Positions 6,618 through 41,417 of a stretch of 64,000 nucleotides of DNA are shown here, piece by piece. The DNA is from Myxococcales bacterium. Its GTDB lineage: Bacteria > Myxococcota_A > UBA9042. The notes below the pieces were generated by a model. The model saw only the letters and a list, made by a program, of their open reading frames with translations, was not told the DNA's origin and searched no databases. Numbering within the stretch: position 1 is the first letter of the stretch; each line of letters opens with the position of its first letter. The translations under genes and the position numbers were made by a program. The stretch is from positions 9,615-73,614 of the forward strand of contig PBTG01000079.1 of the NCBI GenBank assembly GCA_002726535.1, written 5' to 3'.

Positions 6618-6624
6618 GACATCA

Positions 6625-6644
6625 GGGGCTTCGGCCCCTTTTTT
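6625..6644 (+). terminator. Rho-independent terminator
   Basis: GGGGC-TTCG-GCCCC followed by TTTTTT, immediately after the stop of the fibre gene. Confidence 0.7.
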
Positions 6645-6699
6645 ATTGCTTATTCGGAAGCCTTTTGCGACCGGGCAGATGCCCACAGCTCACCCGCAA

Positions 6700-9570: not shown

Positions 9571-9572
9571 TC

Positions 9573-9854: not shown

Positions 9855-9861
9855 TAATACC

Positions 9862-9883
9862 GGCCCCTTCGGGGGCTTTTTTG
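9862..9883 (+). terminator. Rho-independent terminator
   Basis: GGCCCC-TTC-GGGGGC followed by TTTTTTG, after the Tfa-like gene. Confidence 0.7.
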
Positions 9884-9921
9884 TTGCCCCTTCGGAACCC
9901 TGACGCAGCAGCGGTTCCCGA

Positions 9922-21932: not shown

Positions 21933-22517
21933 ATGGCAAATTTTTCATCCGCGTTCGGCTTCAAGGTCTACTTAGTCCCTTGCCTGGCCACAGCGGTCAA
22001 CGTAAGCAGCGTGACTGGCGGTGTTGGCGCAACTGGATTCATCGCCCTGGGCGCATCAGAAGCCAACGTTGTGGCAACTGATGCCGTGGTCACCGAGGGC
22101 ACAGTGACCGAAATCAATGTCGGCGGTTCTGACATCGTTGCAGGCGCTGTGACCCCAGTCGAACTGCTCGGATTGACAGACGCTTCTCTGTCTACCGACA
22201 CCTCGTCCGAAGAAGTTGTGACCTACTCCGACGACTCCGGCTACGGCCAGAGCGTTGCGACTTCCAAGAGCTGGTCAATCAGCCTTTCTGGAGTGACCGA
22301 CTTCAATGATGCCGGCTATCAGGTCATGCGTCTCGCAGAGAAGAACAACGTGGCCGGCGGCATTCGCGTCAAGATCGGCCGAACGACTCCTGCAGGCGAG
22401 CAAATTTACGGCTACGCAACTCTTCAGAGCTTCTCCGAAAGTGTCGAGGCTGGCTCGATTGTGACCTACACAATCGAAGCCGCTGGTTACGGCGCACTGG
22501 GTCTCGGCCTTGCTTAG
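21933..22517 (+). CDS. Putative major tail protein
   Basis: 194 aa, Gly/Ala/Thr/Val-rich. KSWSISLSGVTDFNDAGYQVMRLA is reminiscent of siphovirus major tail proteins. It lies two genes upstream of the tape measure gene. Preceded by CCGGAACCCTG at 21872. Confidence 0.45.
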   Translation: MANFSSAFGFKVYLVPCLATAVNVSSVTGGVGATGFIALGASEANVVATDAVVTEGTVTEINVGGSDIVAGAVTPVELLGLTDASLSTDTSSEEVVTYSDDSGYGQSVATSKSWSISLSGVTDFNDAGYQVMRLAEKNNVAGGIRVKIGRTTPAGEQIYGYATLQSFSESVEAGSIVTYTIEAAGYGALGLGLA

Positions 22518-22676
22518 CTGACTGGAGGGGCTGAAGGTGCGCTGAGAACCCTCAACGGTTCAAGCGTCACCACCTCCACCGGTTTCGCCAATCAGGACAC
22601 CAATGGTGTTCTGGTTGACATCACCGGCCCTAACGGGGCTATCGGAACCGCTGACATCGTTACAGGCGGCGACCTC

Positions 22677-23081
22677 ATGACAAACCTTGAGGTCATTCGC
22701 ATCTCTAACGACAAATTCAGAGTTGGTGACACCATCACCTTCACTGAAAACGGCGGAACCGGTGTTGCAACTGCAATCGTCTCCGCTATTCATGAAGGTC
22801 AAAAAATTGGCGTCATCTCTGGCGCCGTGGCCTTCAACACCGACAACCCGTTCACCGCTGCTGACACCTCTGGTGTTGCTGTCACCTTCATTCCTTCGGC
22901 TGGCGTCAGCGGCCAGCTTGGAGCCGGCCTAGCCGGAACAGTTACAACCTCAGGCCCAACGCTGCTCGACAGCGTTCAGCTCACAGATGGCGGCTACGGA
23001 TTCATGATCGACGACATCATCGAGGTCAACGAAGTTGGCGGACAAGGTGAAGGCCACTTCCGCGTTACTTCTCTCGCTTAA
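22677..23081 (+). CDS. Hypothetical protein between major-tail and tape-measure genes (possible tail assembly chaperone or C-terminal extension)
   Basis: Its position matches that of tail chaperone genes. Its frame is also open upstream to the TAG stop of 21933..22517 in the same frame. Confidence 0.3.
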   Translation: MTNLEVIRISNDKFRVGDTITFTENGGTGVATAIVSAIHEGQKIGVISGAVAFNTDNPFTAADTSGVAVTFIPSAGVSGQLGAGLAGTVTTSGPTLLDSVQLTDGGYGFMIDDIIEVNEVGGQGEGHFRVTSLA

Positions 23082-23149
23082 ACTACCTAACCTCAGCCCT
23101 TAGGAAGAACTACGGCATACTCAAGGCTCGCCAATTGGCGGGCCATTTT

Positions 23150-23180
23150 TATTGGAACCCTAGTCGGAATCTAGGGGCCT
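23150..23180 (+). promoter_or_regulatory. GGAACCCTAG motif copy upstream of tape measure gene
   Basis: TTGGAACCCTAGTCGGAATCTAGGGGCC contains GGAACCCTAG plus an inverted CTAG..CTAGG pair. Lies 25 nt before GTG 23185. Confidence 0.3.
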
Positions 23181-23184
23181 ACGA

Positions 23185-27417
<4,233 letters not shown>

Positions 27418-27429
27418 TCGGAATGCTGA

Positions 27430-27449
27430 GGGGTCGAGAGGCCCCTTTT
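27430..27449 (+). terminator. Terminator-like hairpin
   Basis: GGGGTC-GAGA-GGCCCC followed by TTTT, after the tape measure gene. Confidence 0.4.
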
Positions 27450-27451
27450 CA

Positions 27452-27799
27452 ATGTTTGATTTCTCATCCCCTGAGTCCTCGCTGCAAATGCTGCAAGACG
27501 CAAGACGGGCGAGCCCTGGAGGTGGTCCTGGTATTAGCGAACTGCCGCTAGACGAGCAGTCGGAGTATGAGCTGAAGTGTTCGCTCGCCTACGCATATTC
27601 CGTTGCTCGGGTGGCCCTTAACGAATACGGGGAGGATGTGGCGATGTTGGCTAAGGCTGAGTTTGACCGGGTTTGGTTAGCGCTGATTGATGTCGATGAA
27701 GAGTTTAAAAAGAACGTGATATCGGGAACTGCGCGGCCTCCTATTGGAGCGGCCAAGCCTTACCAGGACTTCGCCAAGGGCAAAACTTCGGAACTCTAG
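27452..27799 (+). CDS. Hypothetical tail-module protein
   Basis: ORF track. Follows a terminator-like hairpin at 27430-27449. Confidence 0.35.
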   Translation: MFDFSSPESSLQMLQDARRASPGGGPGISELPLDEQSEYELKCSLAYAYSVARVALNEYGEDVAMLAKAEFDRVWLALIDVDEEFKKNVISGTARPPIGAAKPYQDFAKGKTSEL

Positions 27800-27818
27800 G
27801 GGCAGTAGTCAGCCCCTC

Positions 27819-28220
27819 ATGTCAGCGATCGGCGTAGCTTATGCCTCACAATCAGGCGGCGGGACTTACAACGTCGTCATAGATCTATTTAGCGGCGGAG
27901 AGGTAGCGAGGGCCTATGAATCCACCGCTCAGTTCTCTAGGGGCGTATCTGGGCAGCAAATAATCACAGGCCGCCCAGGTCGCCAAAAATTCATCTGGGC
28001 CATCTCTGGCCTTCTCGCGGAAGCCGACGCCAAAGAGCTCGACGACATGTTTAAGGCGTGGGATACAGACAGAAGCGCAGGCCTTGCGGCAGCCGTAGGC
28101 ATTACGGACGAAACCCTGTTCGACACGTTGACTTCGAGCGCAGTTTTCTCTACGCCTCCCTCGTTCATCAGAACAGGGCCAAACCACCTAACAGCCTCCT
28201 TTGGATTGGCGGAGGTTTGA
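27819..28220 (+). CDS. Hypothetical tail-module protein (internal ATG of ORF 27744..28220)
   Basis: The ATG at 27819 avoids overlap with the upstream gene. Confidence 0.35.
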   Translation: MSAIGVAYASQSGGGTYNVVIDLFSGGEVARAYESTAQFSRGVSGQQIITGRPGRQKFIWAISGLLAEADAKELDDMFKAWDTDRSAGLAAAVGITDETLFDTLTSSAVFSTPPSFIRTGPNHLTASFGLAEV

Positions 28221-28222
28221 CC

Positions 28223-30541
28223 ATGAGTTATTTAATTAATGCAACTCGCCCAGCATCACTAAAGCTAAACGACGCCGAATACATCGACCAGCTTGAATCT
28301 TTTCAAGTGTCTGATACGTCGTCATACAGAAACGGAATTGTGACCACGACAGGGACAATCCTTCTCGGCACCGTCGGAGGCTCAGACCTGCAGGATTATG
28401 AGCGGGATGATTTTCAACGTGGGTCCACTGTTCGATTTGAGGTGACATACCCAAGCGGCAACACTGCACTACATCCAAGGGGCCGGCTAAATGTCATCAG
28501 CTCTGCATACGATCCAGAGCTCGAACGGATCACCCTTGAGGTCGGTTGCGACTTGGTCGTGGCAAAAATGCTTGATAACGACTCTGTAGTGCTTCCATTC
28601 GAAGCGGTCCCCCTAGACGAAACATCGAAAACCTTTGAGGGCATTGCGTCAAGTCTTGCGGCTGTAGGCGGCCTGATATGGCAGGCAAACGATGGCTCTA
28701 TTCAACAGACAACGTTCTTTGACGGCGATTCCTATGGCAATTATCAGCAGGGATCGTTCGTCTCGGTTCGCGGCGTCACAGCTCTGACCGTTCAACCCTT
28801 AGCAGCGACTGAAGCAATACCGGATCAAATCGAGCTGAGCTACCAGTTCCCGACCGACGAAAGGGCAAAGAACAATCAAGGCAAAGTTGACACTGTGACA
28901 ACAGAGTCTGACTACTTCATCAAATATCCGGCCACGGTTTTCGAGCGGATTAAGGGCGCAACTGTAGATATCAAAGTCATCGTGGGAGGCGGGCCGGTCA
29001 CCATTCCTGCGATAACGACTCCGGAAATCCAGACGGGCTGCGGAAACGCTCCCATTCCTCCTCAGTTCAGACCTTCTGAAACGATCAATATTCCCGGCTC
29101 GGAGCAAACAAAACAGATTCCTGCTCCATGCAGCGTTGGCTATGAGACAAAGTCTGTTCCTCAGTACATCCCAGCGAAACGGAAAGAGGTTCGAACGACT
29201 ACCTACGACGGCCCGGCAGCTCAAACGTCGATGACAGAGAGCCAGATTGAAGGCCCTGTGATTGAGCTGAATTCTCAATATTTTGCTGACAAATTCGCTT
29301 ATTGCGGAGCAACTTACGCGAACAGATGTCTGCCATCTCCATGCGCTTTGTTCGGCACCTACACAGTCGTTCTGGGCAAGCAGCAGACCCAATACATCTA
29401 CGGCAAATCAGCAGAGGTAAGAAAGACAATCACCACAACTTGGAGGCCCAAGCTCGCGGCGGCGCAACCTGACGACTGGAGGTCGGGAGTTGTTAGAGGT
29501 GTCGCGCAAGACTTCAATCAAGGCCTGGCAATTACAGCCATCGGCCTTTACAGGCATCAGATCGTCATCAGAGAATTCCGAAAGGAGAAAAACGCCAATA
29601 TCCAGGAGACAACTACGTTTACCTCCGCAGTTTCTCGAGGGGGCGGCATTGGCGCAGCAATCGACGCCAAGAAAGGGATCAAGACATCTGAAATCAGGCG
29701 CTCAGTGACGTCGGTAGCGGCTGAGATTCGCCCTGACTCGCTCAATGCTGCAACCACTTCTGTCACAACAGAAAAGACGACCGTCGAGATGCACGGCCAG
29801 GTTGGCGGCTATGTCAATGGCGCAGGCCCCTACATCCTCAAAGAGGACATCCCCGTTCCTCTGCTTTACAACTCCTCAAATAGCGTTAAACACGCGGCGA
29901 ATTTTTACGGCGATTACTTGGCCAGATTTATTGAGGGTGATGCGCGAGGCCTGTCAATCGGAGAAGCCCTAAGTGAATCCTGGGCTGCGAGCTGGACGCC
30001 AAATATGCCCTTCAGGTATTACGACCCTAAAAGCCAAAAATTAATGGCGCTTAGGGCTGACGCCTGCTCGTGGGGCGCTGATTCAGGTGGTTGTGTGGTT
30101 GTCATGAATGGGATCTGGGTTGCCGACATGTCTGGAACTGTGACCATTCCTTCGAACCTTCGAGGCAACGCCACGCCTGACATGACCGCGGACGATCCGA
30201 TAGCTCCAACACCTCCGCCGGTTGATGAGCCGTCAGTTATCGGCGACGTCGTCATAAACAAGCGGTTCAACTTCCACGTCGACGTCTACATCACGTCAAA
30301 GATGCTTTGCAATCCTTCAGGGAATGATGGCGTCAGGGTCCCAACTCCTGGCCCCCAGAGCGTCACTCTCGGGATGACGTGGGTGGTTTTCTGCAGGGGT
30401 CGCATCGTTCGGCCTGGTGCTCTCATAGCGCTCGAAAACGATGGATCAATTCCGGTGACGCATCACTACAACGTGGTCGTTGATGAAGCGCTTGTCGTTA
30501 TCGATGACGACGTCCTGTTCCCGGACATTGTTCAGCCGTAG
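28223..30541 (+). CDS. Tail tip / distal tail structural protein (772 aa)
   Basis: ATG at 28223 with GGAGG 8 nt upstream. Large protein immediately after the TMP module, which is the position of distal-tail/tip proteins in siphoviruses. Confidence 0.45.
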   Translation: MSYLINATRPASLKLNDAEYIDQLESFQVSDTSSYRNGIVTTTGTILLGTVGGSDLQDYERDDFQRGSTVRFEVTYPSGNTALHPRGRLNVISSAYDPELERITLEVGCDLVVAKMLDNDSVVLPFEAVPLDETSKTFEGIASSLAAVGGLIWQANDGSIQQTTFFDGDSYGNYQQGSFVSVRGVTALTVQPLAATEAIPDQIELSYQFPTDERAKNNQGKVDTVTTESDYFIKYPATVFERIKGATVDIKVIVGGGPVTIPAITTPEIQTGCGNAPIPPQFRPSETINIPGSEQTKQIPAPCSVGYETKSVPQYIPAKRKEVRTTTYDGPAAQTSMTESQIEGPVIELNSQYFADKFAYCGATYANRCLPSPCALFGTYTVVLGKQQTQYIYGKSAEVRKTITTTWRPKLAAAQPDDWRSGVVRGVAQDFNQGLAITAIGLYRHQIVIREFRKEKNANIQETTTFTSAVSRGGGIGAAIDAKKGIKTSEIRRSVTSVAAEIRPDSLNAATTSVTTEKTTVEMHGQVGGYVNGAGPYILKEDIPVPLLYNSSNSVKHAANFYGDYLARFIEGDARGLSIGEALSESWAASWTPNMPFRYYDPKSQKLMALRADACSWGADSGGCVVVMNGIWVADMSGTVTIPSNLRGNATPDMTADDPIAPTPPPVDEPSVIGDVVINKRFNFHVDVYITSKMLCNPSGNDGVRVPTPGPQSVTLGMTWVVFCRGRIVRPGALIALENDGSIPVTHHYNVVVDEALVVIDDDVLFPDIVQP

Positions 30542-30577
30542 GCCGGAACACTACAGCGACAGAAAAGCTGCTAACCC

Positions 30578-31291
30578 ATGGCAATCACTGCAAAAATATC
30601 CGCAGCAGAGATCTCGGCACAAGTTGATCAGCGCTTCGTCAACAAGTACGTCGAGGGGATCCTTATCGACGCGAACGGGGTCACTTACAGCCCTGGGACG
30701 ACTGTCGACTCAACCTTTCTCGGCTTCGAGGTGGCGGAGGCCAACGGCTACGAAAGACAAGTGCTTGTCTTCCAAGGGCAGGATCAGACCGCTTACACAG
30801 ATGACGGCGTCGGCTTAGCCACTAAGGGCACGGTTTTCACTCATGACGGAAGTGCCAACGCAATCACTTTCACTCATGCCGCTCTGGTTTGGGGCACAGG
30901 AAATGTGGCCGCTCTTGACGCTGCTACTACTGACCCTGCTGTCGGAGTCGATGGGGTCTATACCGATCTTCCTACCGTCACGGATGGTTCGGGGACAGGC
31001 CTAACAGTTGACCTCACGGTCGCCAACAACGTGTTTGTTTTCTCGCCGTCCCGTTTTGGCCGGAACTACCAGACAGGCGACTCGGTCACCATTCTCGAAA
31101 CCACGATGGAGCAGGCGGGCGCTGTTGCGGCCGGAGCAGGGCTGGCTCAGATGTTGGTTGGCACTGTGAGCAGCAACACAGAGGCAGGGCAGTTAATCAC
31201 CGTTGCGCCTGTCGACACTCAGGTCACCTTGGACGCCGGCAATGAGGCGGCCTTCTATTGGGACTTCAAGCTTTTTGGATTCGCTGACTAA
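30578..31291 (+). CDS. Hypothetical structural protein
   Basis: ORF track. Start context GCTAACCCATGGCAA is shared with 19748. Confidence 0.4.
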   Translation: MAITAKISAAEISAQVDQRFVNKYVEGILIDANGVTYSPGTTVDSTFLGFEVAEANGYERQVLVFQGQDQTAYTDDGVGLATKGTVFTHDGSANAITFTHAALVWGTGNVAALDAATTDPAVGVDGVYTDLPTVTDGSGTGLTVDLTVANNVFVFSPSRFGRNYQTGDSVTILETTMEQAGAVAAGAGLAQMLVGTVSSNTEAGQLITVAPVDTQVTLDAGNEAAFYWDFKLFGFAD

Positions 31292-31554
31292 TGGATTTAC
31301 TTCAAAAAACAATTAAGACCGCCGAAACCGCTCGACTGATCGAGCTTGAAAGAAGGCTTGAGGGGTCAGCTCCTCGCGGAGACTTTGAAGGCAGCGTGAC
31401 CGGCTACTGGAACAAGCTCGATGATTTAGGGGTGGGGATTGTTGATTACAAGGGCAAGCAGTACAAAACCAGATCCATCGGCTTTATGTCGCTGCCTAAG
31501 GGGACAGAAGTCGAGCTCACTTACGCCCAAGGCGTCTATTACGCAAAGTTCTAG
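31291..31554 (+). CDS. Hypothetical protein
   Basis: ORF track. Coupled (TAATGG). Confidence 0.3.
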   Translation: MDLLQKTIKTAETARLIELERRLEGSAPRGDFEGSVTGYWNKLDDLGVGIVDYKGKQYKTRSIGFMSLPKGTEVELTYAQGVYYAKF

Positions 31555-31556
31555 CC

Positions 31557-31769
31557 ATGCCAATCAATTCAACGTCATTCGGCTCAGTTCCGATCCAGCA
31601 AACTGGCAGAGTTGTCCTGGCGCTGGTTTCTGCGCGGCCAGATCCGACAGAGGCACTTAATCCGCCGAGAACCCCTGGGGAGTTGATTGGTTACTACAAC
31701 CCTGGCACCGACAAAGTAGAGCTCTGGACGGCTTCTGCCGGGGGCACTTTCTGGCGAGAGGTCGGCTGA
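31557..31769 (+). CDS. Hypothetical protein
   Basis: ORF track. Confidence 0.3.
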   Translation: MPINSTSFGSVPIQQTGRVVLALVSARPDPTEALNPPRTPGELIGYYNPGTDKVELWTASAGGTFWREVG

Positions 31770-32095
31770 TGCCAGACCCTCGCGAGACACTCGCTCACGG
31801 CACGTTGACGCACGTCTATACCAAGCCTTTGAGCGAGGTGGTCGGTCTATACCCGCGCTCTACTAAGACCCCTTTAAATGAGAATCGACTGGTGAGAGTT
31901 GAGGGGCTATTTCAGCCGCAGAGCCAGGACCCGATCGCTGAGGGCGAGATGATCGTTTTATTTAGCGAAGAGTTTGGAGTCAAAATTGCTCAGATATTTG
32001 TCGCGGTCGATATCAGCGGGACTCTGGAGTGGAAAACAATTCAGCACAGAACTGGGATCAGCAACTCTCAGACCGGCGGACCCTGGAACCCATAA
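31769..32095 (+). CDS. Hypothetical protein
   Basis: ORF track. ATGA-type overlap. Confidence 0.3.
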   Translation: MPDPRETLAHGTLTHVYTKPLSEVVGLYPRSTKTPLNENRLVRVEGLFQPQSQDPIAEGEMIVLFSEEFGVKIAQIFVAVDISGTLEWKTIQHRTGISNSQTGGPWNP

Positions 32096-32134
32096 CCGTC
32101 GGCACCCTAGGCGGACCTGATCGCGTCTTAGGCA

Positions 32135-33658
32135 ATGGTGTGGGGGCAAAATGGAGGGTTAAGAGAATTCTTCGACAAGAACCAAAGGTTAGAAAGCGAC
32201 GCTCGCGATCGCCGCCTCAGCTACGAGAGGCTCACCGATTCGGGCAGCCTAGAAAGTACGGGATATGAGGGAAATTCTTTCGAGACCGAGACCGGCTCTT
32301 TCAACTGCCAGACGGCATCAGATTGCGGCGCTGATCACAGTTGTTCCGGCGGGCAATGCGTGCCCAACAATTCGACCAGCACTACGGCCGCAGGTGACGG
32401 CGCCTCTCCAGGCGGGTCGTCAAGCGGCGGCGGATCGCCAAGCGCGGGCTGCAGTGGTGACATCCCTGGAGACGACTGCATAGAAAAGGGGTGCGCCACT
32501 GGGCCTACATGTGGAGACGGAGGAGAGGAGCCCTTTGGCTGCTGCGGAACGCCTATCTACAGATGCCATGGCGCAGGCCAAACCGGAGAGCCGCAATGCG
32601 AGCCGTGCGAGTTCGAAGAAAAAGAGTGCAATGACTTCTGTGATTCGTGGTTTAAGTCACACGGTTCACTGGCCCCTAACTGCACAAGCGGAGCTACTGG
32701 CCGACCCCTGACGTGTGGCGATTGCAGTGAATGCTTTGCCAGCCTGTGCCGCGAGGCTGACGACGGCCCTTGCTGGTGCAAGCCAGGGAATACTGGCTGC
32801 CCTGACTGCGAAGAATGTCAAAGACCATCCGGCGACTGCAAGGCTGGTGTCGGGGTGTGCAATGACGAGTGCAACTGCTTCGTCACCTGCCCCTGCGGAA
32901 CTCAATACCAAGGCTTCCACACGCAGGAGCATTACGCCACCGGGCTTGCCTGCCCATCTGCGTGCCGCGCCGCCACTTATCAAAAATATTGCGTCGAGGG
33001 AAAAGATAAATCCTGCCCACCCCAGAAAGACTCCTGCAAGGCGGATCCCGGAAATAAGTGCGAGCTCGATTGTTACTGCACCTCTCAAAAGGTTTCATGC
33101 AACGGGACCCACACCTGCCCTGACGGCTACCGCTGCCAAGTCACGGGAACGCTGAACGCCTCACTTGGCGGTCAATGCGAGGACGGAACCGATCCCACAA
33201 ACCTTTGGGCGACAGGTGGCAAAACCATCTTCCTGAGGATCTGCAAGATGGCAGACGACCCCGACTGTCAGGAGTGTGATTGCAATTGTGAGAATGATTG
33301 CCCTGACTGCCACACCTGCGGGGCTGACGGAAGATGTGTTTATGACGAAGGCTGCGACACCCCTTGCGACAATCCCTGCAATGGCGCTTGTTGCGGGCCG
33401 GGCCAGAAATGCGTCCCCGCAGTTCTTTGGCAAGTCATCGACGCCTGCCACTTCCAGGGCGCGACTTTCGCGGCTCCTCAAGGTGTCACCCCTGCGCTAG
33501 TCCATACAACGGACGTCACAAAAGAAGATGCCGTCTGCGATCGCTGGCACACTCACTGCGCTGTCACGGTTCAAGGGGGTCAGGTCGCTCAGCACTTGGA
33601 CTGCCAGAAAGGTCTCAAGCGCATTGGGCCGGCTGGATACAACATCTGCAGCGACTGA
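32135..33658 (+). CDS. Cysteine-rich modular protein (507 aa, ~63 Cys)
   Basis: The N-terminal ~56 aa are Cys-free. The rest is packed with C-x(2-6)-C units (CQTASDCGADHSCSGGQCVP.., CPDCEECQRPSGDCKAGVGVCNDECNCFVTCPCG, CQECDCNCENDCPDCHTCGADGRCVYDEGCDTPCDNPCNGACCGPGQKCVP). GGAACC at 32086 upstream. Confidence 0.55.
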   Translation: MVWGQNGGLREFFDKNQRLESDARDRRLSYERLTDSGSLESTGYEGNSFETETGSFNCQTASDCGADHSCSGGQCVPNNSTSTTAAGDGASPGGSSSGGGSPSAGCSGDIPGDDCIEKGCATGPTCGDGGEEPFGCCGTPIYRCHGAGQTGEPQCEPCEFEEKECNDFCDSWFKSHGSLAPNCTSGATGRPLTCGDCSECFASLCREADDGPCWCKPGNTGCPDCEECQRPSGDCKAGVGVCNDECNCFVTCPCGTQYQGFHTQEHYATGLACPSACRAATYQKYCVEGKDKSCPPQKDSCKADPGNKCELDCYCTSQKVSCNGTHTCPDGYRCQVTGTLNASLGGQCEDGTDPTNLWATGGKTIFLRICKMADDPDCQECDCNCENDCPDCHTCGADGRCVYDEGCDTPCDNPCNGACCGPGQKCVPAVLWQVIDACHFQGATFAAPQGVTPALVHTTDVTKEDAVCDRWHTHCAVTVQGGQVAQHLDCQKGLKRIGPAGYNICSD

Positions 33659-33694
33659 AGATCGGAAAGATAAGGCAGCTTGTGAATAGTTTCT

Positions 33695-36600
33695 GTGGCT
33701 GTTTTTCCTGATCGTATTGTCCAGAAAAACAGCACAGATCCTGCCGGTTCGGTAAGAACTGCTGTCGATCCCGTGATCGGTTCAGACCCAATCATCGGCG
33801 GTGAACTTGTAGTTCAAAGATCTATTGGCAGCGCTCAACTACTCACTCTTGATGCTAATAATACTCCAGTAGTTGTAGGCGTTTCGGCAAATGTTGGAGC
33901 GACCACTCCATCGATCAAGCTGAATTTTGAGGAAGATGGCACCGATACGCCGTATGAATATGTTGTCGGCGGATATCCTTTCGACCCCAGCGGCAAGTTT
34001 GGCAACTGTTATAAACACATTGCCGGCAGCACTTCCCCACGAATCAATCCCCTGAGAATCCAGGCCGAGAATGTGCCTGTCCTAGGGAGCGAAACTTGGA
34101 CATTTAACTTCTGGTTTAAAAGCGATTTTACTTTTGACTTTTACAGCCACTTCGACCCCGCCCCAAACAGCCTGCTAGTTGTTTCGGCGAGAGACTATGT
34201 CCATGGACCTGGAGCTTTCACTGTCACGATTGATGGTGGCACAACTGACACGGGCGGGATCGGCACGGACACAAGTCGCACGGCGGACCTGGCTAAGGGC
34301 GCGATCGTGTTTGGCCTGGGTGGCATGTACGGCGCGACAGAAAGCACCATCCCTCAGATCCCCTCCACAGGCGAGATCGTCACTTCTGCTGCGACTGGTG
34401 TCTGTGACAACAACTGGCACTACATCACCTTCATGCACGAGGGCAGCGGGGTTTACTCCTGTTTCATTGACGGCGAACTGAAAGAAAGAAACATCCTCGA
34501 CAGCCCCGTCAATTACGGCGACTCAGGAACTTCAGGGATCTTGATGCCCTCGGGTCTCGAGTTCGGTGGAGCTCTTCAGATCAATGACAACGACGTATTT
34601 CCTGGATCAGAGTTTTTCGGATTCAACGGCAGGCTTGATGGTGTCACGTTGTATGCCGGCAACGCCATTTTTCGGGGATTGCGTCAGTTCACAGTCCCCA
34701 CCTCTGCTCCAAACGACGACCCAGTACAGCAACCCCTAGACACGCTCAGGACACTCCTCGACACGGGCATCGACGCAATCCCAGGTAATGGCGAAACGCT
34801 TGTCTATAACGCCACGGAGGGCGCCTGGGAGAACTCACCAGCTCCAGCATTCAGCCTCACTGGCAACAACCTTGGAGATATTGGAGACGTCACCATCGCG
34901 GCAGTCGCCTCGCTGACTCAAGGCGAAACGATTACGTGGGATGTCGCGACCTCTAATTGGATCAACAGCCCGATCCTGATCGAAAACACCGACGTCGATA
35001 CGACCCTTACGGGCACGGGATATGTGATCCGCCACGACGGTTTGACCGGCTGGAAATCAGAGCGCCTCGATTACGCCGATCTGAGCAATGCCCCTGCAGC
35101 TCTGAGCGACCTGACACAAGACCTGGATTTAAGTCTCTACAACGTCGTTGACCTGGCCGATGTTGTTGTTACCTCGATTCAACAGGGCGACGTCCTCGCA
35201 TGGAACGACGCTAATAGTCAGTTCGAAAACATTGCTCAGCCACCGGCAAATATCAGCGGAAGCAATCTCGACGAACTTCTCAATGTCAAAACGTTCGCCG
35301 ACGTAAGTCAAAGCGTTTTAAACACTTACACCTGGTTGGCATGGAATGCGATCGACGCCAAGTGGGAGCCGAGAACTCTTGAATACACTGAGGTGTTTGA
35401 TGCACCTGCAGACCTAAGCGATTTCAACAACGACCTAACTCTAAATAGTTTCACCAATGACGCTGGTTATCTTTCAGCGGCAAACCTGTCGACGTTCTCT
35501 CTCAACTCTTTCGGCGATGTAACTATAACCAGCCCTGTCGAATCTCATGTCCTGGTTTACAGGTCCGGTCAGTGGCGCAATGAGGTTGGCCCACCGGCAA
35601 ACATCACGAGCAACTCAATCGGTGACCTTGCGGACGTCACTAAAACTCAGGCAGCCAATACCTTGCCGGCGGTGGTGACCATGGAGGACATGGGCCACCT
35701 GGTCTTTGACAGCCCTCTGCTCGCGTCAAATATCACTTATCAGGTGATGTACGACCACGACCGATTAGGTCTTGGCCTTTCGGCTATTCGTGACTCTGAC
35801 GACACGGGATCCGAGATCTTCGTTAGCCGTGGTGGTGGTGTTGACCTTCGCTCAGACGTCAACTTCTTCCGCCTACGCGGCAAGCCTGATGTAACAACCA
35901 ACAGACCCGAACTCCGTTTCGAGACTGGTGATTCTTTCGCTACCCCTGCGACAGGTCACTACATCTCACTCAAGATGCCCTCCACGGTCCTTGAAGATCA
36001 GACCTATTACTTGCCCCAAGAAGATGGCGACGTCGGCGACGTGCTCGCTACTAACGGAACAGGTGAGCTGTCTTGGATTGCTCGCGCCTCGAACAATGAT
36101 CTGGGCCAACTGAGCGACGTCGATCTGAGCACTCAGTTACCAGTCGACGGCAGCGCGTTAATTTACAACTCAGCGGCCTCGATGTGGGTTCCTGGAGCCA
36201 GCGTCACAGACCTGAGCACGTCAGTTTTGAATGACATCTCGGACGTCTCTTATGGAGGCACACCGGGGACAGGTCAGGCATTGCTATGGAACGGCAGCGC
36301 CTGGGTGCCGAATGACATTGCGGTCTCGCTCGACGACCTGGCTGATGTCACCTTCTCAAACGGGGCGTTCACTGCCACTGGACTGCAGGCGATTGTCCTC
36401 GAGGACACGGCAGGCACTGGGTTCATTGGGTTCACCTCACCCGCGAACTACAACGCGACCGTTCTTTATACGCTCCCCGTTGACGACGGGGCAACAGGTG
36501 AGGTGCTCACCACTAACGGATCAGGGGTCCTCTCCTGGATCGAGCCCGGAGTTGATGAAGCATCCCCTGCGATTGTTTGGGACGTAACAAACGTTGGGGT

Positions 36601-37441
36601 CATTGCTTACGGGTTTACCGGCTCAGGCTTTTCGACTACGACAAGCAACCCGGCCCTTTACGTGGTGCGCGGTCAAAAGTACACGTTTAATAAGACAATC
36701 TCTGGCCATCCGTTCGAATTGGTCGAGGCCGATGGTGTTACCCAGTACACCGCCGGAGCTGTAGAGAGTCAGCCCCTGGCCCTGGGCGAATTGAACTGGA
36801 CGGTGCCGATGGATGCACCCTCAACCCTTGGCTACCGATGCACGGCTCACCCGTTGATGAAGGGGATCATCTATGTCTTAAACGCTGGCGTCGACCTGGC
36901 CTCGTCGAACATCGAAGAGCTCGCCAATGTCTCGTCAACCGCCCCAACCGCGGGCCAGGCTCTTGTGTGGAACGGCACGGAGTGGGTCCCTGGGTCCGTC
37001 CTCAGCTCTGGCAGCGCTACCGGATCAGCGATCAGCCAGTCCGTAACTGAGACACAGGTATCCGATGCGAATGGTTTCTTGACCTTCATCGACCTGGGCA
37101 CCTCTGGAACGTTGATCGATATACAGGCAGGCGCTGAAGCGTGGGTGACTATCTATTCATCAGTAGCGACAAGGGCCGCGGACGCCGCAAGAAGCCTCGA
37201 GGAAGATCCTGCACAAGGGTCGGGAGTCCTTGCGGAGTTCGTTATCCCCGCATCGACAACAGTGCTGACAACGCCGAGCACCAACTACTTCAATTCGGAG
37301 GGACTCATCTCCGAGTCGATCTATGCAGTGGTTCGCAACCCCTCGACAGCAGCCGCGCTCAATAACGTCTCAGTGACTGTCAGGGCGTTCGCGATCAGCG
37401 GTTACACCGCAGTCTCTGGAGGCACTTTCGGCAGCGGTTGA
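33695..37441 (+). CDS. Tail fibre / host-specificity protein (1248 aa) with LamG-like domain, LSDL-type short repeats, an embedded cupredoxin-like domain and a C-terminal shared module
   Basis: GTG start. N-terminal motif DRIVQKNSTDPAGSVRTAVDPVIGSDP..GGELVV. aa ~130-260 WTFNFWFK..WHYITFMHEGSGVYSCFIDGELK fits a LamG/ConA-like jelly roll. Repeated ..LSDLTQDL / ..ADLSDFNNDL units. aa ~958-1062 carries cupredoxin ligand motifs. C-terminal ~110 aa is homologous to two modules in 37472..38635. Confidence 0.7.
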   Translation: MAVFPDRIVQKNSTDPAGSVRTAVDPVIGSDPIIGGELVVQRSIGSAQLLTLDANNTPVVVGVSANVGATTPSIKLNFEEDGTDTPYEYVVGGYPFDPSGKFGNCYKHIAGSTSPRINPLRIQAENVPVLGSETWTFNFWFKSDFTFDFYSHFDPAPNSLLVVSARDYVHGPGAFTVTIDGGTTDTGGIGTDTSRTADLAKGAIVFGLGGMYGATESTIPQIPSTGEIVTSAATGVCDNNWHYITFMHEGSGVYSCFIDGELKERNILDSPVNYGDSGTSGILMPSGLEFGGALQINDNDVFPGSEFFGFNGRLDGVTLYAGNAIFRGLRQFTVPTSAPNDDPVQQPLDTLRTLLDTGIDAIPGNGETLVYNATEGAWENSPAPAFSLTGNNLGDIGDVTIAAVASLTQGETITWDVATSNWINSPILIENTDVDTTLTGTGYVIRHDGLTGWKSERLDYADLSNAPAALSDLTQDLDLSLYNVVDLADVVVTSIQQGDVLAWNDANSQFENIAQPPANISGSNLDELLNVKTFADVSQSVLNTYTWLAWNAIDAKWEPRTLEYTEVFDAPADLSDFNNDLTLNSFTNDAGYLSAANLSTFSLNSFGDVTITSPVESHVLVYRSGQWRNEVGPPANITSNSIGDLADVTKTQAANTLPAVVTMEDMGHLVFDSPLLASNITYQVMYDHDRLGLGLSAIRDSDDTGSEIFVSRGGGVDLRSDVNFFRLRGKPDVTTNRPELRFETGDSFATPATGHYISLKMPSTVLEDQTYYLPQEDGDVGDVLATNGTGELSWIARASNNDLGQLSDVDLSTQLPVDGSALIYNSAASMWVPGASVTDLSTSVLNDISDVSYGGTPGTGQALLWNGSAWVPNDIAVSLDDLADVTFSNGAFTATGLQAIVLEDTAGTGFIGFTSPANYNATVLYTLPVDDGATGEVLTTNGSGVLSWIEPGVDEASPAIVWDVTNVGVIAYGFTGSGFSTTTSNPALYVVRGQKYTFNKTISGHPFELVEADGVTQYTAGAVESQPLALGELNWTVPMDAPSTLGYRCTAHPLMKGIIYVLNAGVDLASSNIEELANVSSTAPTAGQALVWNGTEWVPGSVLSSGSATGSAISQSVTETQVSDANGFLTFIDLGTSGTLIDIQAGAEAWVTIYSSVATRAADAARSLEEDPAQGSGVLAEFVIPASTTVLTTPSTNYFNSEGLISESIYAVVRNPSTAAALNNVSVTVRAFAISGYTAVSGGTFGSG

Positions 37442-37453
37442 CCGGAACCCTAG
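37442..37453 (+). promoter_or_regulatory. Representative copy of recurrent cGGAACCcTAG motif (candidate late promoter -35-like element)
   Basis: CCGGAACCCTAG lies immediately after the stop of 33695..37441 and 20 nt before ATG 37472. Related copies at 1224, 9894, 18200, 21872, 23154, 32086, 38638, 39489, 40342 and 44939. Confidence 0.35.
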
Positions 37454-37471
37454 CCCGAGATTGACGGGCTT

Positions 37472-38635
37472 ATGGCGGACTTCATCGCACGGATCAAACC
37501 AAAAAAGAGCTCCGTATCAGGTGAAGTCCCCACGGCCTCAGACCTCGAAGTCTCCGAGATTTCAGTTAACACCGCCGACGGCAAGCTGTTCGTCAAGCAC
37601 ACCGACGGCAGCATCAAAGAGATCAGTGGATCGAGTGGCGCCAGTGACGGATCAGTCAGAACAAGTGATCCACAAATCACCACAGCAGCGCTCGCTCAGT
37701 ACGCATCAGAAGACGCCACCTTTGGTCAGACCGGCAGGGCTGGGCAGTTCCTGAAAATCGAGGCAAGCTGCGCCTCATGGGTCGTCTTCTATTCGAGCAG
37801 GGCTGCGCGCACTGCTGACGCAGCAAGAGCATCAGACGAGAACCCAGCCCAGGGCGTCGGCGTACTGATGGAGGTTTTCACCGATCAGGCTGAGACCGTT
37901 CTGATCACGCCGTCTGTTCTCTACTTCAACGACGACGTCAACGAAGGCGCCGAGGTCTACGCAAAAGTCGTCAACCAAGACGCGACAACTCAAGCGGTCA
38001 CCGTCACGGCCACCGTGGTCCCTATCGAAGGACGCTCCCTATACGAAGCAGAGGGGACAGCTCGGATCAAGGGCCTAAGTGTCGAGTCGGCATCGCTGGC
38101 CACGAACGCATCAGAGTTTTTAACGCTTAAGCAGACCGCACGATCTGGCCAGTTCACAAAGATCTCGACCTCAGCAGCGGCCCGCGTAATTTTTTACAGC
38201 ACGACAGCAGCGAGAACAGCCGACTCGTCAAGGCAGCAAGGTTCGACTCCCTTGGCTAGCTCCGGCGTGTTGATGGAGGTGGTCACCGCAGGCGCTGAGA
38301 CGTTAGAGATCACTCCAGCAATTCTCTATCAAAACTCTGAGCCAGGCGCAGCCGGCGAGCTCTACGTGAGCGTGACGAACCTGGAGACAATTGCAACCGC
38401 AATCACTGTCACCGTTGACGTCGTACCCATCGAGGGACGCGGTGCATATCTGAGTGAGCTGAATGAACTACTCGATGTCGACACTACGGGCGTAGCTAAT
38501 GGTGACGCGATCGTCTACGACGCAGCAGCATCGAAGTGGGTTCCTGATCAGCTCATCAGCCTGAGCAGCTTGAAAACTGAGGTGGCGGCTGCTTCTGATT
38601 TCGCCGACTTTCAGTCGAGGATCGCGGCGCTCTGA
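37472..38635 (+). CDS. Tail fibre protein with two tandem ~105-aa shared modules
   Basis: N-terminal anchor motif IARIKPKKSSVSGEVPTASDLEVSEISVNTADGKLFVKHTDGS. Two internal repeats (..GQF.KI..S.A..V.FYS..AARTAD..R......GVLMEV.T..AET..ITP..LY.N.....E.Y..V.N.......TVT..VVPIEGR). C-terminal GDAIVYDAAASKWVP. Confidence 0.6.
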   Translation: MADFIARIKPKKSSVSGEVPTASDLEVSEISVNTADGKLFVKHTDGSIKEISGSSGASDGSVRTSDPQITTAALAQYASEDATFGQTGRAGQFLKIEASCASWVVFYSSRAARTADAARASDENPAQGVGVLMEVFTDQAETVLITPSVLYFNDDVNEGAEVYAKVVNQDATTQAVTVTATVVPIEGRSLYEAEGTARIKGLSVESASLATNASEFLTLKQTARSGQFTKISTSAAARVIFYSTTAARTADSSRQQGSTPLASSGVLMEVVTAGAETLEITPAILYQNSEPGAAGELYVSVTNLETIATAITVTVDVVPIEGRGAYLSELNELLDVDTTGVANGDAIVYDAAASKWVPDQLISLSSLKTEVAAASDFADFQSRIAAL

Positions 38636-38669
38636 TCGGAACCATAGGCCGACAGATCAAGCCGGCTTA

Positions 38670-39038
38670 ATGATCAACTCCGTCGAGGACCTGAGAAGCG
38701 CTGGCGTGTTGCCTACTGGTCCTGTTTCTGCTTGGCCGAAACAGCGCAATGTGGCCGGGCCAGGGATGAGGGGCGCCAAGGAACACAAGGCCGATCCCAA
38801 GATCAAGGCAACGGTGGCAGGCCTGGCGAGAGGTCTGGGTAAGACCGCGCTGCAGGGAATCCTCAACGGCAAGGTCAGCCGTGAGGTCAGAGAGGAGCGG
38901 TATGACATTTGTAAGGCTTGCTCGGCATTTCGCAAGCAAGACAAGCGCTGTAGTGAGTGCGGTTGCTTTATGGAGGCCAAGACGTTTATTGCTGGCGACC
39001 CCGACATGCTCTGTCCCCTCAAAAAATGGAGCCGCTGA
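38670..39038 (+). CDS. Zinc-ribbon-like CxxC..CxxC protein
   Basis: CKACSAFRKQDKRCSECGC....LCP cysteine pairs. Preceded by GGAACCATAGG at 38638. Confidence 0.4.
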   Translation: MINSVEDLRSAGVLPTGPVSAWPKQRNVAGPGMRGAKEHKADPKIKATVAGLARGLGKTALQGILNGKVSREVREERYDICKACSAFRKQDKRCSECGCFMEAKTFIAGDPDMLCPLKKWSR

Positions 39039-39041
39039 TCG

Positions 39042-39464
39042 ATGGCTATCAACCCCGCGCCAATGGATCAATGTCTGGTCAAGGCTCGCTGCCTGACTGG
39101 ACCTAATGAGGGGCTGGCATACGACCTCAAGCAGCCCTGCCCGACCGGTCAGCAGTTCGTGCCGGAAGTGTGCGACTGCTTCCCTATAGATACGCCTTGC
39201 CCTGCCGGCATTGGCGGGACCTTGACGTCACGCCTCAGCAGTCGGCTAGGGAACGCAACGGTAACGACTTTCTACCCCACAATTCAAGGCGGAGTGGCTG
39301 GCGGCGGCTCTCGCGTCATCGATGATCAGATACAGGTATTTGATGGGACGGCCTTTGTCGCGGCAGGCGTTACCCCTTACAGCGTTGGCGACGAATACGG
39401 CGGCCAGATCTTGACCAGTGTCGTTCACTCGTTCGCTTTGGCTAGTACGTGTGATCCGACTTGA
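39042..39464 (+). CDS. Hypothetical Cys-containing protein
   Basis: ORF track. CLTGP..CPTGQQFVPEVCDCFPIDTPCPAG. Confidence 0.35.
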   Translation: MAINPAPMDQCLVKARCLTGPNEGLAYDLKQPCPTGQQFVPEVCDCFPIDTPCPAGIGGTLTSRLSSRLGNATVTTFYPTIQGGVAGGGSRVIDDQIQVFDGTAFVAAGVTPYSVGDEYGGQILTSVVHSFALASTCDPT

Positions 39465-39518
39465 TCAGGGTTCGCACTCTAACTGGCCGGAACCATAGGG
39501 GGCAACTTTCTGCCGGGG

Positions 39519-40277
39519 GTGATCCCCGTCTGCACCATGCCCGAAGAGAATCTCAATCTCGACGTCAACGCTGGCGTTGAAACCGCCGAAACAGTCGACG
39601 CATCCCCCTCCACTGAACAAGACAGCTATTCAAAGGAGGAGGTCTCGAAACTGCTAAAGGCTTTACATACCGAGCGCGACGCTCGCAAAGCACAAGAGAA
39701 AGCCCTCAAGGAATCAGCCACCAAGCTGCAATCCCTGGAAGGCATCGATAAGGCCACTTACGACAGGCTTCAGGAAGAATCTGCACGCCGTGCGGAGGCT
39801 GAGGCCACTTTCGAAGCTCGTGAGCTCGATCGCCAAAAGGCCTTCGAGTCGATGCGTCAAGAGGCGGCCGTCCGTGAGCGCAAGCTCGAAGGGCAGATCA
39901 GCCACATGAATCGCCACCGGGCGTTCGAGGGACTCTTCTCCGCTGCAGGCGGTAAGGGCGGAAGATTCCTAGATACAGCGTTCGACGCTGTCGGCAAAAG
40001 CCTACGCCTAGAAGACAACGGCTCATTTACGGTCATCGACCCCAACGGCGACCCCTTGCTCGACGATGAGTCAGGCAAGCGCATCGACCCAAAAGAGTGG
40101 GTTAGCCAGTGGAAAAGCGATGACTTTCTCGGCTTCTGCTTTGAGCCCGAACAGGGCTACGGCACCGGGGCAACCAATCACCCCTCACAGCGTCGCGACA
40201 CAGGGACTATGGGTGATTTCAAAGGTCTAAGCACTAGCGAAATCTTCGCCCGTTCGTTCGGCAACAAGAAGGGCTAA
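39519..40277 (+). CDS. Putative capsid scaffolding protein
   Basis: Acidic N-terminus followed by a long charged coiled-coil-like stretch (KAQEKALKESATKLQSLEG..EESARRAEAEATFEARELDRQKAFESMRQEAAVRERKLEGQ). Lies immediately upstream of the candidate capsid gene. GGAACCATAGG at 39489. Confidence 0.4.
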   Translation: MIPVCTMPEENLNLDVNAGVETAETVDASPSTEQDSYSKEEVSKLLKALHTERDARKAQEKALKESATKLQSLEGIDKATYDRLQEESARRAEAEATFEARELDRQKAFESMRQEAAVRERKLEGQISHMNRHRAFEGLFSAAGGKGGRFLDTAFDAVGKSLRLEDNGSFTVIDPNGDPLLDDESGKRIDPKEWVSQWKSDDFLGFCFEPEQGYGTGATNHPSQRRDTGTMGDFKGLSTSEIFARSFGNKKG

Positions 40278-40493
40278 GCCCAAAAAACGAGTGAGTTCGG
40301 GAGTTGACGTGGGCCACTTGCGCCAACTTCGGCACTCTCTCGGAACCCTAATCACGAGATGGAAGATGCCCTGGTTCTGATTCGGTGCGACGCCGATTCG
40401 GTGGCCTGGGCAGAACGGACCCCTTGAGGTGTGACGCCTCTGTTCCGAACTTCCCAGATCACCAACTCAATGTCACTCTGACAACTCAGAACA

Positions 40494-41417
40494 ATGTCTT
40501 TAACCCTGCTACAGCAAGGCCAGTTCGCCACAACAGGCGAGCAGCTTGCAATCATCTCCGAGCTCGCCGCTGGCGACCTCCTTTCAGTTCTTCCCTTCCG
40601 TTCAATCGAAGGGAACAGCATCCGCTTCCGGCGCGAAGAGGCTCTGCCTGACGTCGGCTTTCGCCACGTCAACGGAACTCTCACCGAGAGCTACGGCGAG
40701 ATCTCGATGCAAAGCGAGGCTCTCCACCTGTATGGCGGCGACCTGCGCGTTGACAAGGCCATCCTGACCCTCGAAGGTCCTGAGGCCCGTGCATGGAACA
40801 TCCAGGCCCGCGTGAGAGCAATGCGCCACAACTTCGAGAAAGTCTTTATCAAAGGATCCGAAGCTGCCTCTAACGGCCTCGAGTTCGATGGACTGCAGGC
40901 CCGTATCGCTGCAACCTCCAGCCAGTACATCGCCAATCAGTCCGGCAACTCCGGCGCCCTCAGCTTCGCAGCTTTGGACGAGGCCCTCGACGCAGTCGAC
41001 GCCACTGGCGGCCAAAAATACTTGGTCATGTCGAAGCAGATGCGTCGTGCCCTGACCGCCGGCTCCCGCGATTCTGGCGTCAACGGTGGCATACATATCA
41101 GTACCGACGAGCTTGGGAGACAGCGCACTATGTACGCTGATACCCCGGTGTTGATCGTGGACCGCGACGAGAAGAACGTTGACATCCTGGGCGCTACTGA
41201 AGCAAACAGCACTTCTTCCGTCTACATCGCGTCATTCGGCGACACCGCTCTGACCGGCATCCAGAACGGCGGCATCGAGGTCCGCGACCTCGGAGAAGCC
41301 ACCGACCGCCCTCAGATGGTCACAAGAATGGAGTGGTATTGCGGACTAGCTCTGCTTCGTGGAAATGCTGTCGCACGCCTCGCCAAGGTTGACCCAACTC
41401 TGGCCGCTGTCGCCTGA
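40494..41417 (+). CDS. Putative major capsid protein
   Basis: 307 aa. Sits after a scaffold-like gene and before a ~107-aa gene. Sequence (GLQARIAATSSQYI..ALSFAALDEALDAVDATGG..KYLVMSKQMRRAL) is reminiscent of lambda-E-like capsid proteins. Assignment is by position and composition only. Confidence 0.4.
   Translation: MSLTLLQQGQFATTGEQLAIISELAAGDLLSVLPFRSIEGNSIRFRREEALPDVGFRHVNGTLTESYGEISMQSEALHLYGGDLRVDKAILTLEGPEARAWNIQARVRAMRHNFEKVFIKGSEAASNGLEFDGLQARIAATSSQYIANQSGNSGALSFAALDEALDAVDATGGQKYLVMSKQMRRALTAGSRDSGVNGGIHISTDELGRQRTMYADTPVLIVDRDEKNVDILGATEANSTSSVYIASFGDTALTGIQNGGIEVRDLGEATDRPQMVTRMEWYCGLALLRGNAVARLAKVDPTLAAVA

Follow-up and report, generated by a model that had tools for sequence, protein, structure and literature searches.

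What role can an extremely cysteine-rich protein play in the tail module of a marine phage? The question is raised by an open reading frame (ORF) at positions 32135..33658 (+) of a 64,000-nucleotide stretch of DNA, called the window throughout (positions 9,615 to 73,614 of contig PBTG01000079.1, assembly GCA_002726535.1, deposited under the name Myxococcales bacterium). The encoded protein, hereafter the Cys-rich protein, has 507 amino acids (aa), of which 63 (12.4%) are cysteines, the first being residue 58. It is proposed here, with a probability of roughly 0.55, that it is a structural protein of the distal tail (tail tip or baseplate periphery) acting as a disulfide-stapled adhesin or adaptor.

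Regarding the origin of the window, its major capsid protein (40494-41417) shares 59% identity with that of the Prochlorococcus siphovirus P-SS2 and 55-57% with those of the Synechococcus siphoviruses S-CBS2 (56%) and S-CRES1-3, while a tail protein encoded upstream of the Cys-rich gene by an 827-aa ORF is 39% identical to S-CBS2 gp024, annotated as 'unknown structural protein'. Because of these identities, the window can be assigned to an uncultured cyanosiphovirus of the P-SS2 / S-CBS2 / S-CRES lineage. No nucleotide-level match of the window was found in the phage collection.

A genuine gene of exceptional composition

The ORF is the longest of its frame and has no internal stop codon; with its stop codon it forms a complete coding sequence. 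The preliminary description, made from the sequence alone, had counted about 63 cysteines (~12%) after a Cys-free N-terminal stretch of ~56 aa. Both counts hold, the Cys-free stretch being 57 aa long, and both peptides quoted in that description are present in the translation. The other over-represented residues are Gly (13%) and Asp (8%), and 31 aromatic residues (F, Y, W) are found. Since the 38 other ORFs of the window that were tallied contain on average 0.59% Cys, the protein is a ~21-fold outlier within its own genome, which argues against compositional drift of the genome; the structural genes nearby mostly encode 0-1 Cys each.

Comparison with the 97%-identical gene on contig L019, the nearest relative, gives a ratio of nonsynonymous to synonymous substitution rates (dN/dS) of 0.20. 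Not a single Cys is replaced between the two genes, and five synonymous changes are located in Cys codons. The gene is real and under purifying selection. A frame error or a mis-called ORF, considered in the preliminary description, is incompatible with these values and with the existence of 16 close and 211 distant homologues. No competing Rfam family, tRNA, promoter-like or terminator-like signal was detected at the locus, and the protein sequence contains neither a signal peptide nor a transmembrane segment.

Two irregular gene models were encountered among the related loci. In L003, a 90-kb contig, the gene is split (9541-11119) into a 137-aa ORF corresponding to the N-terminal part (P0151) and a 372-aa ORF (P0015), probably by a frameshift or an assembly error. 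The 855-aa protein P0137 of the Logan contigs L008 (7369-9936) and L009 (8741-11308) is a gene-caller artefact that reads through TAG stops and merges three genes, namely a ~114-aa gene, the Cys-rich gene and the fibre gene. A fusion with the upstream 108-aa gene combined with TAG recoding in L008 was rejected, since every in-frame TAG is located at a real gene end.

An uncharacterised family found in phages

A word-indexed search of 5.8 billion proteins retrieved 16 homologues (33-97% identity), all metagenomic, unnamed and without Pfam domains. Scanning with the family profile in HMMER extended the family to 211 cluster representatives at E<=1e-3, with 145 at E<=1e-10, and the Cys content is 5-17% in all 150 HMMER matches listed. 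Most members, the distant ones, match the family profile at positions ~25-392 only.

Cultured phages are represented by S-CBS2 gp029 (ADF42385.1) and S-CRES3 gp92 (WGL30749.1), both annotated as 'hypothetical protein'. These are true family members: the family hidden Markov model (HMM) A1 aligns with them co-linearly at E = 1.5e-21 and 4e-29, respectively, and the HMM A3 matches them at E = 1e-85 and 3e-87. They are ~30% identical to the window protein and share with it an N-terminal motif, the CDCNCxNDCPxC signature and the genomic position, although their C-terminal domains are different and unrelated. The window protein itself matches the family scaffold co-linearly, including C-x-C-x-C-x3-C-x2-C-x2-C...G-x-C at aa 381-401, and is encoded, as in the other members, between small tail-tip genes and a fibre gene starting with (M/V)AVFPDRIV.

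No relative was found in a GTDB scan of 185,579 bacterial and archaeal species genomes, with no sign of prophage or cellular copies, and seven were found in IMG/VR. On present evidence from sequence databases, the family thus appears to be confined to phages. Megablast and tblastn searches of the phage collection gave no match to the Cys-rich gene, and the cultured relatives were reached only via synteny. Pfam, PHROGs and NCBIfam gave no match for the protein, nor did sequence and profile searches of the PDB. Full-text literature searches returned no mention of a Cys-rich tail protein in cyanosiphoviruses, and the Cys richness of S-CBS2 gp029 and S-CRES3 gp92 is unmentioned in searchable papers. 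The family is uncharacterised but has already been sequenced, its cultured examples carrying the label 'hypothetical protein'.

Position in the tail-tip block

The gene order in the tail module is as follows: tail tube (Phage_tail_2), tape measure (PF10145; 23185-27417 in the window), proteins of ~116, ~132, ~770, 237, ~90, 70 and ~108 aa, the Cys-rich protein and one or more large fibres. With small variations, this order is broadly kept in all the loci read, i.e., the window, L001-L003, L007-L011, L019/L020, S-CBS2 and S-CRES3. The placement within the tail module given in the preliminary description is confirmed by the tape measure and by the fibre-like gene downstream. Four small Cys-free genes (237, 87, 70 and 108 aa; 30578..32095, +) precede the Cys-rich gene in the window, and three or four of these small genes are located directly upstream of it in every locus read.

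The downstream fibre gene (33695..37441, +) encodes 1248 aa, matches phrog_677 and phrog_9627 and has the N-terminus VAVFPDRIVQKNSTD... Whatever the length of the downstream gene, its N-terminus reads (V/M)AVFPDRIVxKNSTD...GELV in the seven loci examined (the window, L001, L007, L008, L010, S-CBS2 and S-CRES3). The 1248-aa fibre is a candidate docking partner of the Cys-rich protein. PDB profile searches with the neighbouring tail-tip proteins tested gave nothing useful.

Cysteine turnover

The behaviour of the cysteines was analyzed in close relatives, in a wider set of 134 sequences and, for parity, in 82 proteins cut after the equivalent of C407. Among close relatives, cysteines are lost jointly: five sequences lack both C246 and C273, two lack both C301 and C315, and the pair C322/C348 is missing from two. 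Of the 134 sequences, 109 have both C222 and C235, 23 have neither and only 2 have one without the other (phi 0.95); phi reaches 0.89 for C301-C315 and 0.87 for C246-C273, with C313-C370 and C169-C183 also within 0.87-0.89. C225 and C228, the inner Cys of the CxxCxxC flanked by C222/C235, are kept in 97-99% of the sequences. A loss of C222/C235 while C225/C228 stay is not the behaviour of a shared metal site.

The scaffold, up to the C407 equivalent, contains 41-85 Cys per protein, an odd number in 78 of the 82 proteins, and the C-terminal tails, which are mutually unrelated, contain 2-18 Cys, an even number in 78 of the 82. With so many different Cys counts, this regularity implies repeated gain and loss in steps of two. 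The corresponding binomial p value of 8e-19 is uncorrected for relatedness and overstates the significance. As to spacing, 8 CxxC are found where 8.6 are expected, and only 2 CC where 8.7 are expected, a pattern opposite to that of metallothioneins. Pairwise loss, parity and spacing are three independent sequence arguments in favour of disulfides, and the turnover points to disulfides together with one conserved unpaired Cys rather than to Cys4 metal sites. The window protein would thus probably contain ~31 disulfides, ~26 in the scaffold and 5 in the tail, in addition to the conserved unpaired Cys.

Domain architecture and predicted fold

An AlphaFold model based on 17 sequences was poor, with a predicted local distance difference test (pLDDT) score of 62, whereas a model based on 134 family sequences reached a mean pLDDT of 78, with values mostly >90 over residues 160-507. 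The Cys-free N-terminal region (aa 1-57; 32135..32305, +) is predicted to be disordered or weakly helical, with pLDDT <50 at aa 1-5 and 15-55. It carries in the wider family a M-x-W...FL-x-x-G motif and is a candidate docking peptide. It is followed by a four-Cys mini-module, C-x5-C-x5-C-x4-C (C58, C64, C70, C75; aa 58-77; 32306..32365, +), predicted to form a small beta-hairpin knob (strands 68-71 and 74-77; pLDDT ~85), the Cys of which are kept in 97% of the 134 sequences. A flexible linker rich in Gly, Ser and Thr (aa 78-113; 32366..32473, +), with pLDDT <50 at aa 81-112 and a variable length in the alignment, connects this knob to the conserved Cys-rich scaffold.

The scaffold (aa 114-407; 32474..33355, +) defines the family, with nearly invariant Cys columns, and is modelled as a mixture of helices (167-176 and 273-293) and long beta-hairpins (243-265 and 310-341) with a further strand at 363-372. 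It ends with the signature C-x2-C-D-C-N-C-E-N-D-C-P-D-C-x2-C-x5-C (CQECDCNCENDCPDCHTCGADGRC; aa 378-401; 33266..33337, +), of which the columns C378-C401 are invariant in A1 and which is also found in S-CBS2 gp029 and S-CRES3 gp92. The variable C-terminal region (aa 408-507; 33356..33655, +) is made up of a short neck dense in Cys, followed by a beta domain of six strands (aa 425-506) predicted with pLDDT 93-98. In the subfamily of the window protein, represented by a 17-sequence alignment, this region carries an invariant or nearly invariant His/Cys/Asp cluster (D436, C438, H439, C468, R470, H472, T473, H474, C475, H487, D489 and C490). Its segment C-D-R-W-H-T-H-C (C-x-R-x-H-x-H-C; aa 468-475; 33536..33559, +) is a candidate metal-ligand motif, and the conservation makes one metal site in the C-terminal domain of this subfamily plausible.

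The internal repeat periodicity envisaged in the preliminary description did not emerge: no tandem module was found and self-BLAST gave the identity match alone. The sole recurring element, C-[PG]-[DE]-C-x2-C-x4-6-C (12-14 aa), occurs at residues 194, 222 and 389, i.e., three times against 0.4 expected. A Foldseek search of the PDB with the first model, based on 17 sequences, gave a best E value of 2.7. The improved model matched a single BFVD entry, the family member F4YCL0 (500 aa), which is probably S-CBS2 gp029. Judging from the models, the protein probably has a new fold, matching no solved structure.

Variability of the C-terminal region

The last 100-250 aa of the family members are hypervariable. 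Among 84 tails of at least 90 aa after the signature motif, 35 BLAST clusters can be distinguished, 23 of them singletons, and the tail type of the window protein is common to 18 sequences. No Pfam domain was found above threshold in the long tails of distant members. The insert of one member, P0123, shows a sub-threshold similarity to LDL-A and DUF7107.

At a finer scale, the window and L019 are 97% identical over 10.8 kb and the tail-tip genes upstream of the Cys-rich gene are ~99% identical. A divergence hot spot is located at 33200..33400 (+), corresponding to aa ~355-422, with 33 differences per 200 nucleotides against 5 and 1 in the flanking bins (33000-33199 and 33400-33599, respectively). 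Because many of the changes are synonymous, the sequence comparison suggests that this is an imported patch. The fibre gene also diverges from that of L019, in 33800-34500 and 35600-36900, with up to 42 differences per 200 nucleotides. As in receptor-binding proteins, a conserved anchoring part is thus combined with an exchangeable C-terminal domain. Host-recognition proteins classically show such a combination along with micro-diversity in common with the fibres, and this underlies the adhesin or receptor-binding proposal.

Proposed role and alternative explanations

The following arrangement can be hypothesized. The Cys-free N-terminal peptide would dock the protein to the tail tip and be followed by the four-Cys knob and the flexible Gly/Ser linker. 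These would lead to a scaffold of ~300 aa with a new fold, held by ~26 intramolecular disulfides and containing one conserved unpaired Cys, and then to the exchangeable C-terminal domain with its own self-contained disulfides. Once oxidised, the scaffold would be a compact, rigid and protease-resistant body in oxic seawater, the disulfides presumably forming by oxidation after lysis or late in infection. The hypervariable C-terminal domain would touch the host surface as a receptor-binding or adhesin domain, and the conserved scaffold may seat the conserved N-terminal domain of the adjacent fibre. From presence in the virion to disulfide formation, receptor binding and fibre docking, these steps are what we infer; the location in the virion, in particular, is suggested by synteny and by the proteomics of a compositional analogue in P-SS2.

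Several points weigh against this proposal. The case for receptor binding is drawn from variability. In S-CBS2, gp024, gp025 and gp030-032 are labelled 'structural protein' and gp029 'hypothetical protein'; gp029 was either undetected or resistant to digestion. Homology to the P-SS2 analogue, ORF084, was rejected since HMM scores were negative, and its proteomic support therefore extends to the family through position and composition. Regarding the disulfides, common descent of the sequences inflates the parity statistics, and the cytoplasm in which phage tails are assembled is reducing. A search for a thioredoxin, glutaredoxin or thiol oxidase among the CxxC-containing ORFs of the window that were tested was negative.

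The protein could alternatively be a metal-cluster protein, in which the cysteines ligate Zn, Cd or Cu in the manner of metallothioneins, form many Zn(Cys)4 knuckles or hold Fe-S clusters, and in which metal stabilizes the tail-tip protein. Such chemistry would suit folding in the cytoplasm where the tail is assembled, given the lack of a phage oxidase among the ORFs tested, and reportedly has a precedent in the Fe-S cluster of a siphophage tail tip, that of lambda gpL. It is also consistent with the 17 Cys found within the 49 aa of positions 378-426, with the odd total Cys count and with the three C-x2-C-x2-C-x4-6-C motifs (0.4 expected; p ~0.01), which are superficially ferredoxin-like, and the conserved C-terminal His/Cys/Asp cluster may well bind one metal ion. 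However, cysteines are lost in twos and not in fours, as seen when C222/C235 are absent together from 23 sequences and C225/C228 are kept, and the scaffold counts shift by two. CxxC is not enriched and CC is depleted, unlike in metallothioneins, His is rare in the scaffold, the confident beta-rich model was built without metal, and no Pfam match to the Phage_tail_L, zinc-finger or metallothionein models was obtained. A metal-cluster protein is considered improbable.

Two further explanations concern the role. In one of them, which is considered unlikely, the protein would be a non-binding adaptor or platform anchoring the downstream fibres to the baseplate, possibly covalently via the unpaired Cys, and recognition would be left entirely to the fibres. 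The gene is indeed always directly upstream of a fibre gene with a conserved N-terminus of ~60 aa, the scaffold has one conserved unpaired Cys, and the fibres of cyanophage Pam3 are disulfide-linked to Cys-rich wedge loops and released by dithiothreitol (DTT) (PMC9942802). Nevertheless, the N-terminal domain of the fibres has no conserved Cys, with 0 Cys in the whole of S-CBS2 gp030, and the four small proteins encoded upstream are Cys-free, so that no heterologous disulfide partner is evident; moreover, the hypervariable C-terminal domain and the local divergence hot spot would be left unexplained. In the other, the protein would be a late accessory protein encoded in the tail operon and absent from the virion, such as a fibre assembly factor, a host-surface modifier or a superinfection exclusion factor. 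The label 'hypothetical protein' given to S-CBS2 gp026-gp029 between genes labelled 'structural protein' speaks for it, as does the fact that the virion presence of the homologues is not taken from their own proteomics. Yet the position in the tail-tip block is strictly conserved among members at 25-97% identity, and in P-SS2 the virions were found to contain the products of all genes of the equivalent block, ORF084 and the small genes among them. Neither a signal peptide nor a transmembrane segment is present, and ~500 aa with a variable C-terminus are atypical of fibre chaperones. An accessory protein is, in all, very improbable.

Genomic context of the tail module

The tail module (tube, tape measure, tip and fibres) precedes the head scaffold (39519-40277) and the major capsid gene (40494-41417) in the window (21933-41417), an unusual order. 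The motif CGGAACMMT is found in 18 copies in the window against 2.1 expected, at sites including 1222, 9893, 18209, 21881, 30544, 37443, 38637, 39488, 40341 and 60367. Almost all copies are intergenic and gene-oriented, just 3' of a stop codon and ~25-35 nucleotides upstream of the next start codon, and the motif may serve as a promoter specific to the phage or as a signal for translation or processing. One block, flanked by the copies at 30544 and 37443, comprises the four small genes (237, 87, 70 and 108 aa) together with the Cys-rich gene and the gene of the 1248-aa fibre; no copy directly precedes the Cys-rich gene. The GGAACC motif that the gene was said to follow in the preliminary description is a partial view of this motif, and the GGAACC at 32085 turned out to belong to the preceding gene, the 3' end of which contains it as part of the codons for ...WNP*.

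Two small proteins with ~5% Cys are encoded after the fibre genes, one of 122 aa (38670-39038, +) and one of 140 aa (39042-39464, +). The former shows weak similarity to DUF6171 and has zinc-ribbon-like CKAC...CSEC motifs. Genes of similar size follow the fibres in L001, L007 and L008, including a 129-aa gene of L008/L009 with a weak DUF6171 match. The 122- and 140-aa proteins may have a role in the assembly of the fibres.

Two fibre-like genes (3654-6617 and 6517-9570, +) are found close to the beginning of the window, at a large distance from the main tail module. The encoded proteins, of ~1000 aa each, are paralogues with tail-fibre PHROG matches at aa ~160-230 and nearly identical C-termini (...SNTLTPS*). 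A 1734-aa protein (9922-15126, +) has a head-morphogenesis domain of the Phage Mu F-like type at aa 154-279 and a kinase domain of the Zeta-toxin / AAA_33 type at aa 731-901 (E = 1e-49), and may be a polyvalent toxin-like protein delivered by the virion.

Significance

Synechococcus and Prochlorococcus are hosts of cyanosiphoviruses, a group whose tail-tip machinery is structurally uncharted. A phage-only family with >200 clusters, a confident predicted fold without a PDB match and ~31 putative disulfides is a target for cryo-electron microscopy and biochemistry, and raises the question of how a particle assembled in a reducing cytoplasm gains dozens of disulfides. With cultured members available (S-CBS2, S-CRES1-3), experiments are feasible. 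A scaffold that tolerates many C-terminal domains could also serve as a host-range marker in metagenomes or as a display scaffold. A probable new fold and a chemistry unusual for a phage tail set the family apart.

A more speculative and rather unlikely idea is that the tail tip of widespread marine cyanophages, with a new-fold protein needing ~31 disulfides, exactly one unpaired Cys and, in this subfamily, a His/Cys/Asp cluster (DACH ... CxRxHTHC ... HLDC), contains a redox- or metal-dependent trigger. If so, virions would mature oxidatively, either after lysis or via an oxidising late-infection state of the photosynthetic host, and reduction or metal exchange at the host envelope could loosen the tip and license DNA ejection. 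Redox chemistry would then be part of host recognition in the ocean, and marine virus particles would include a thiol- and metal-binding component.

Comparison with known systems

A counterpart by position is P-SS2 ORF084 (PSS2_gp084), an 'unknown structural protein'. Purified virions yielded on average 43 of its peptides, and all the small proteins encoded upstream of it were detected as well (Sullivan et al., PMC2784084). The word 'cysteine' is absent from that paper (PMC2784084). The slot of ORF084 is the same, the tape measure and then the small tail-tip genes preceding it. With 282 Cys among 2612 aa (10.8%), it has a Cys density similar to that of the window protein, and it shares with the family the short motifs C-x2-C-x2-C...G-x-C and C-x5-C-x5-C-x4-C. 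It is, however, five times longer than the window protein and its C-terminus is Cys-free and coiled-coil-like. Within the P-SS2 gene (L006 16442-24280; NC_013021.1 64657-72495), the Cys codons fall in the first ~2,300 residues and most densely in the first ~1,900, and the C-terminal tail is rich in Ala, Glu, Asp and Gln, with a weak Pfam DUF7107 match. ORF084 may be an analogue of the Cys-rich family in position and composition, or else a relative that has diverged very far.

In lambda, the C-terminal domain of the tail-tip protein gpL is said to hold a [4Fe-4S] cluster, as Tam and co-workers reportedly described in 2013. gpL is a siphophage tail-tip protein with conserved and structurally essential Cys, as the protein considered here may be, but it has four ligand Cys in 232 aa. 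The window protein matches neither Pfam (Phage_tail_L) nor a PHROG, and its Cys turnover favours disulfides, so a gpL-like Fe-S assignment was rejected.

Disulfides hold the baseplate of cyanophage Pam3 together and DTT detaches its fibres (PMC9942802). There, a Cys-rich wedge (gp22/gp23) forms inter-subunit bonds with the conserved Cys28 of the fibre (PMC9942802). In both cases the structure of a cyanophage tail would depend on disulfides in the mature virion and be redox-sensitive, those of the window protein being deduced from its turnover. Pam3 differs in being a myophage and in relying on a few Cys located in wedge proteins whose fold is known, with no sequence relationship to the window protein, in which 63 Cys are carried by one chain and are presumably mostly intramolecular. 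Covalent fibre docking of the Pam3 type was rejected, given the fibre N-terminal domains without conserved Cys and the Cys-free S-CBS2 gp030.

Other Cys-rich families were also compared. Metallothionein-like membership was rejected on the basis of the 31 aromatics, the depleted CC, CxxC at a random level and the confident beta-rich model. The known zinc-finger array envisaged as an alternative in the preliminary description, and zinc ribbons with it, do not fit a protein whose Cys are lost in pairs and counted in steps of two, with CxxC unenriched and no Pfam zinc-finger match.

With regard to eukaryotic modules, EGF, granulin, TIL/antistasin and LDL-A domains, Giardia VSP and ciliate surface antigens have Cys contents of ~10-13% and C-x2-6-C spacings like those of the window protein. 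The EGF/granulin/antistasin resemblance noted in the preliminary description was not borne out at the family level, profile and structure searches having given no match. Membership of the EGF, granulin, TIL, antistasin or LDL-A families was likewise rejected, no profile, fold or tandem repeat of 35-60 aa being found, and the predicted fold, with long hairpins and helices, is unlike eukaryotic beads of 40-aa modules. The function tentatively suggested in the preliminary description finds partial support. Disulfides probably serve the window protein and the eukaryotic modules alike, in forming small, rigid bodies outside the cell. The Cys-rich protein is proposed to function like a phage adhesin whose construction resembles that of the disulfide-rich extracellular proteins of eukaryotes.

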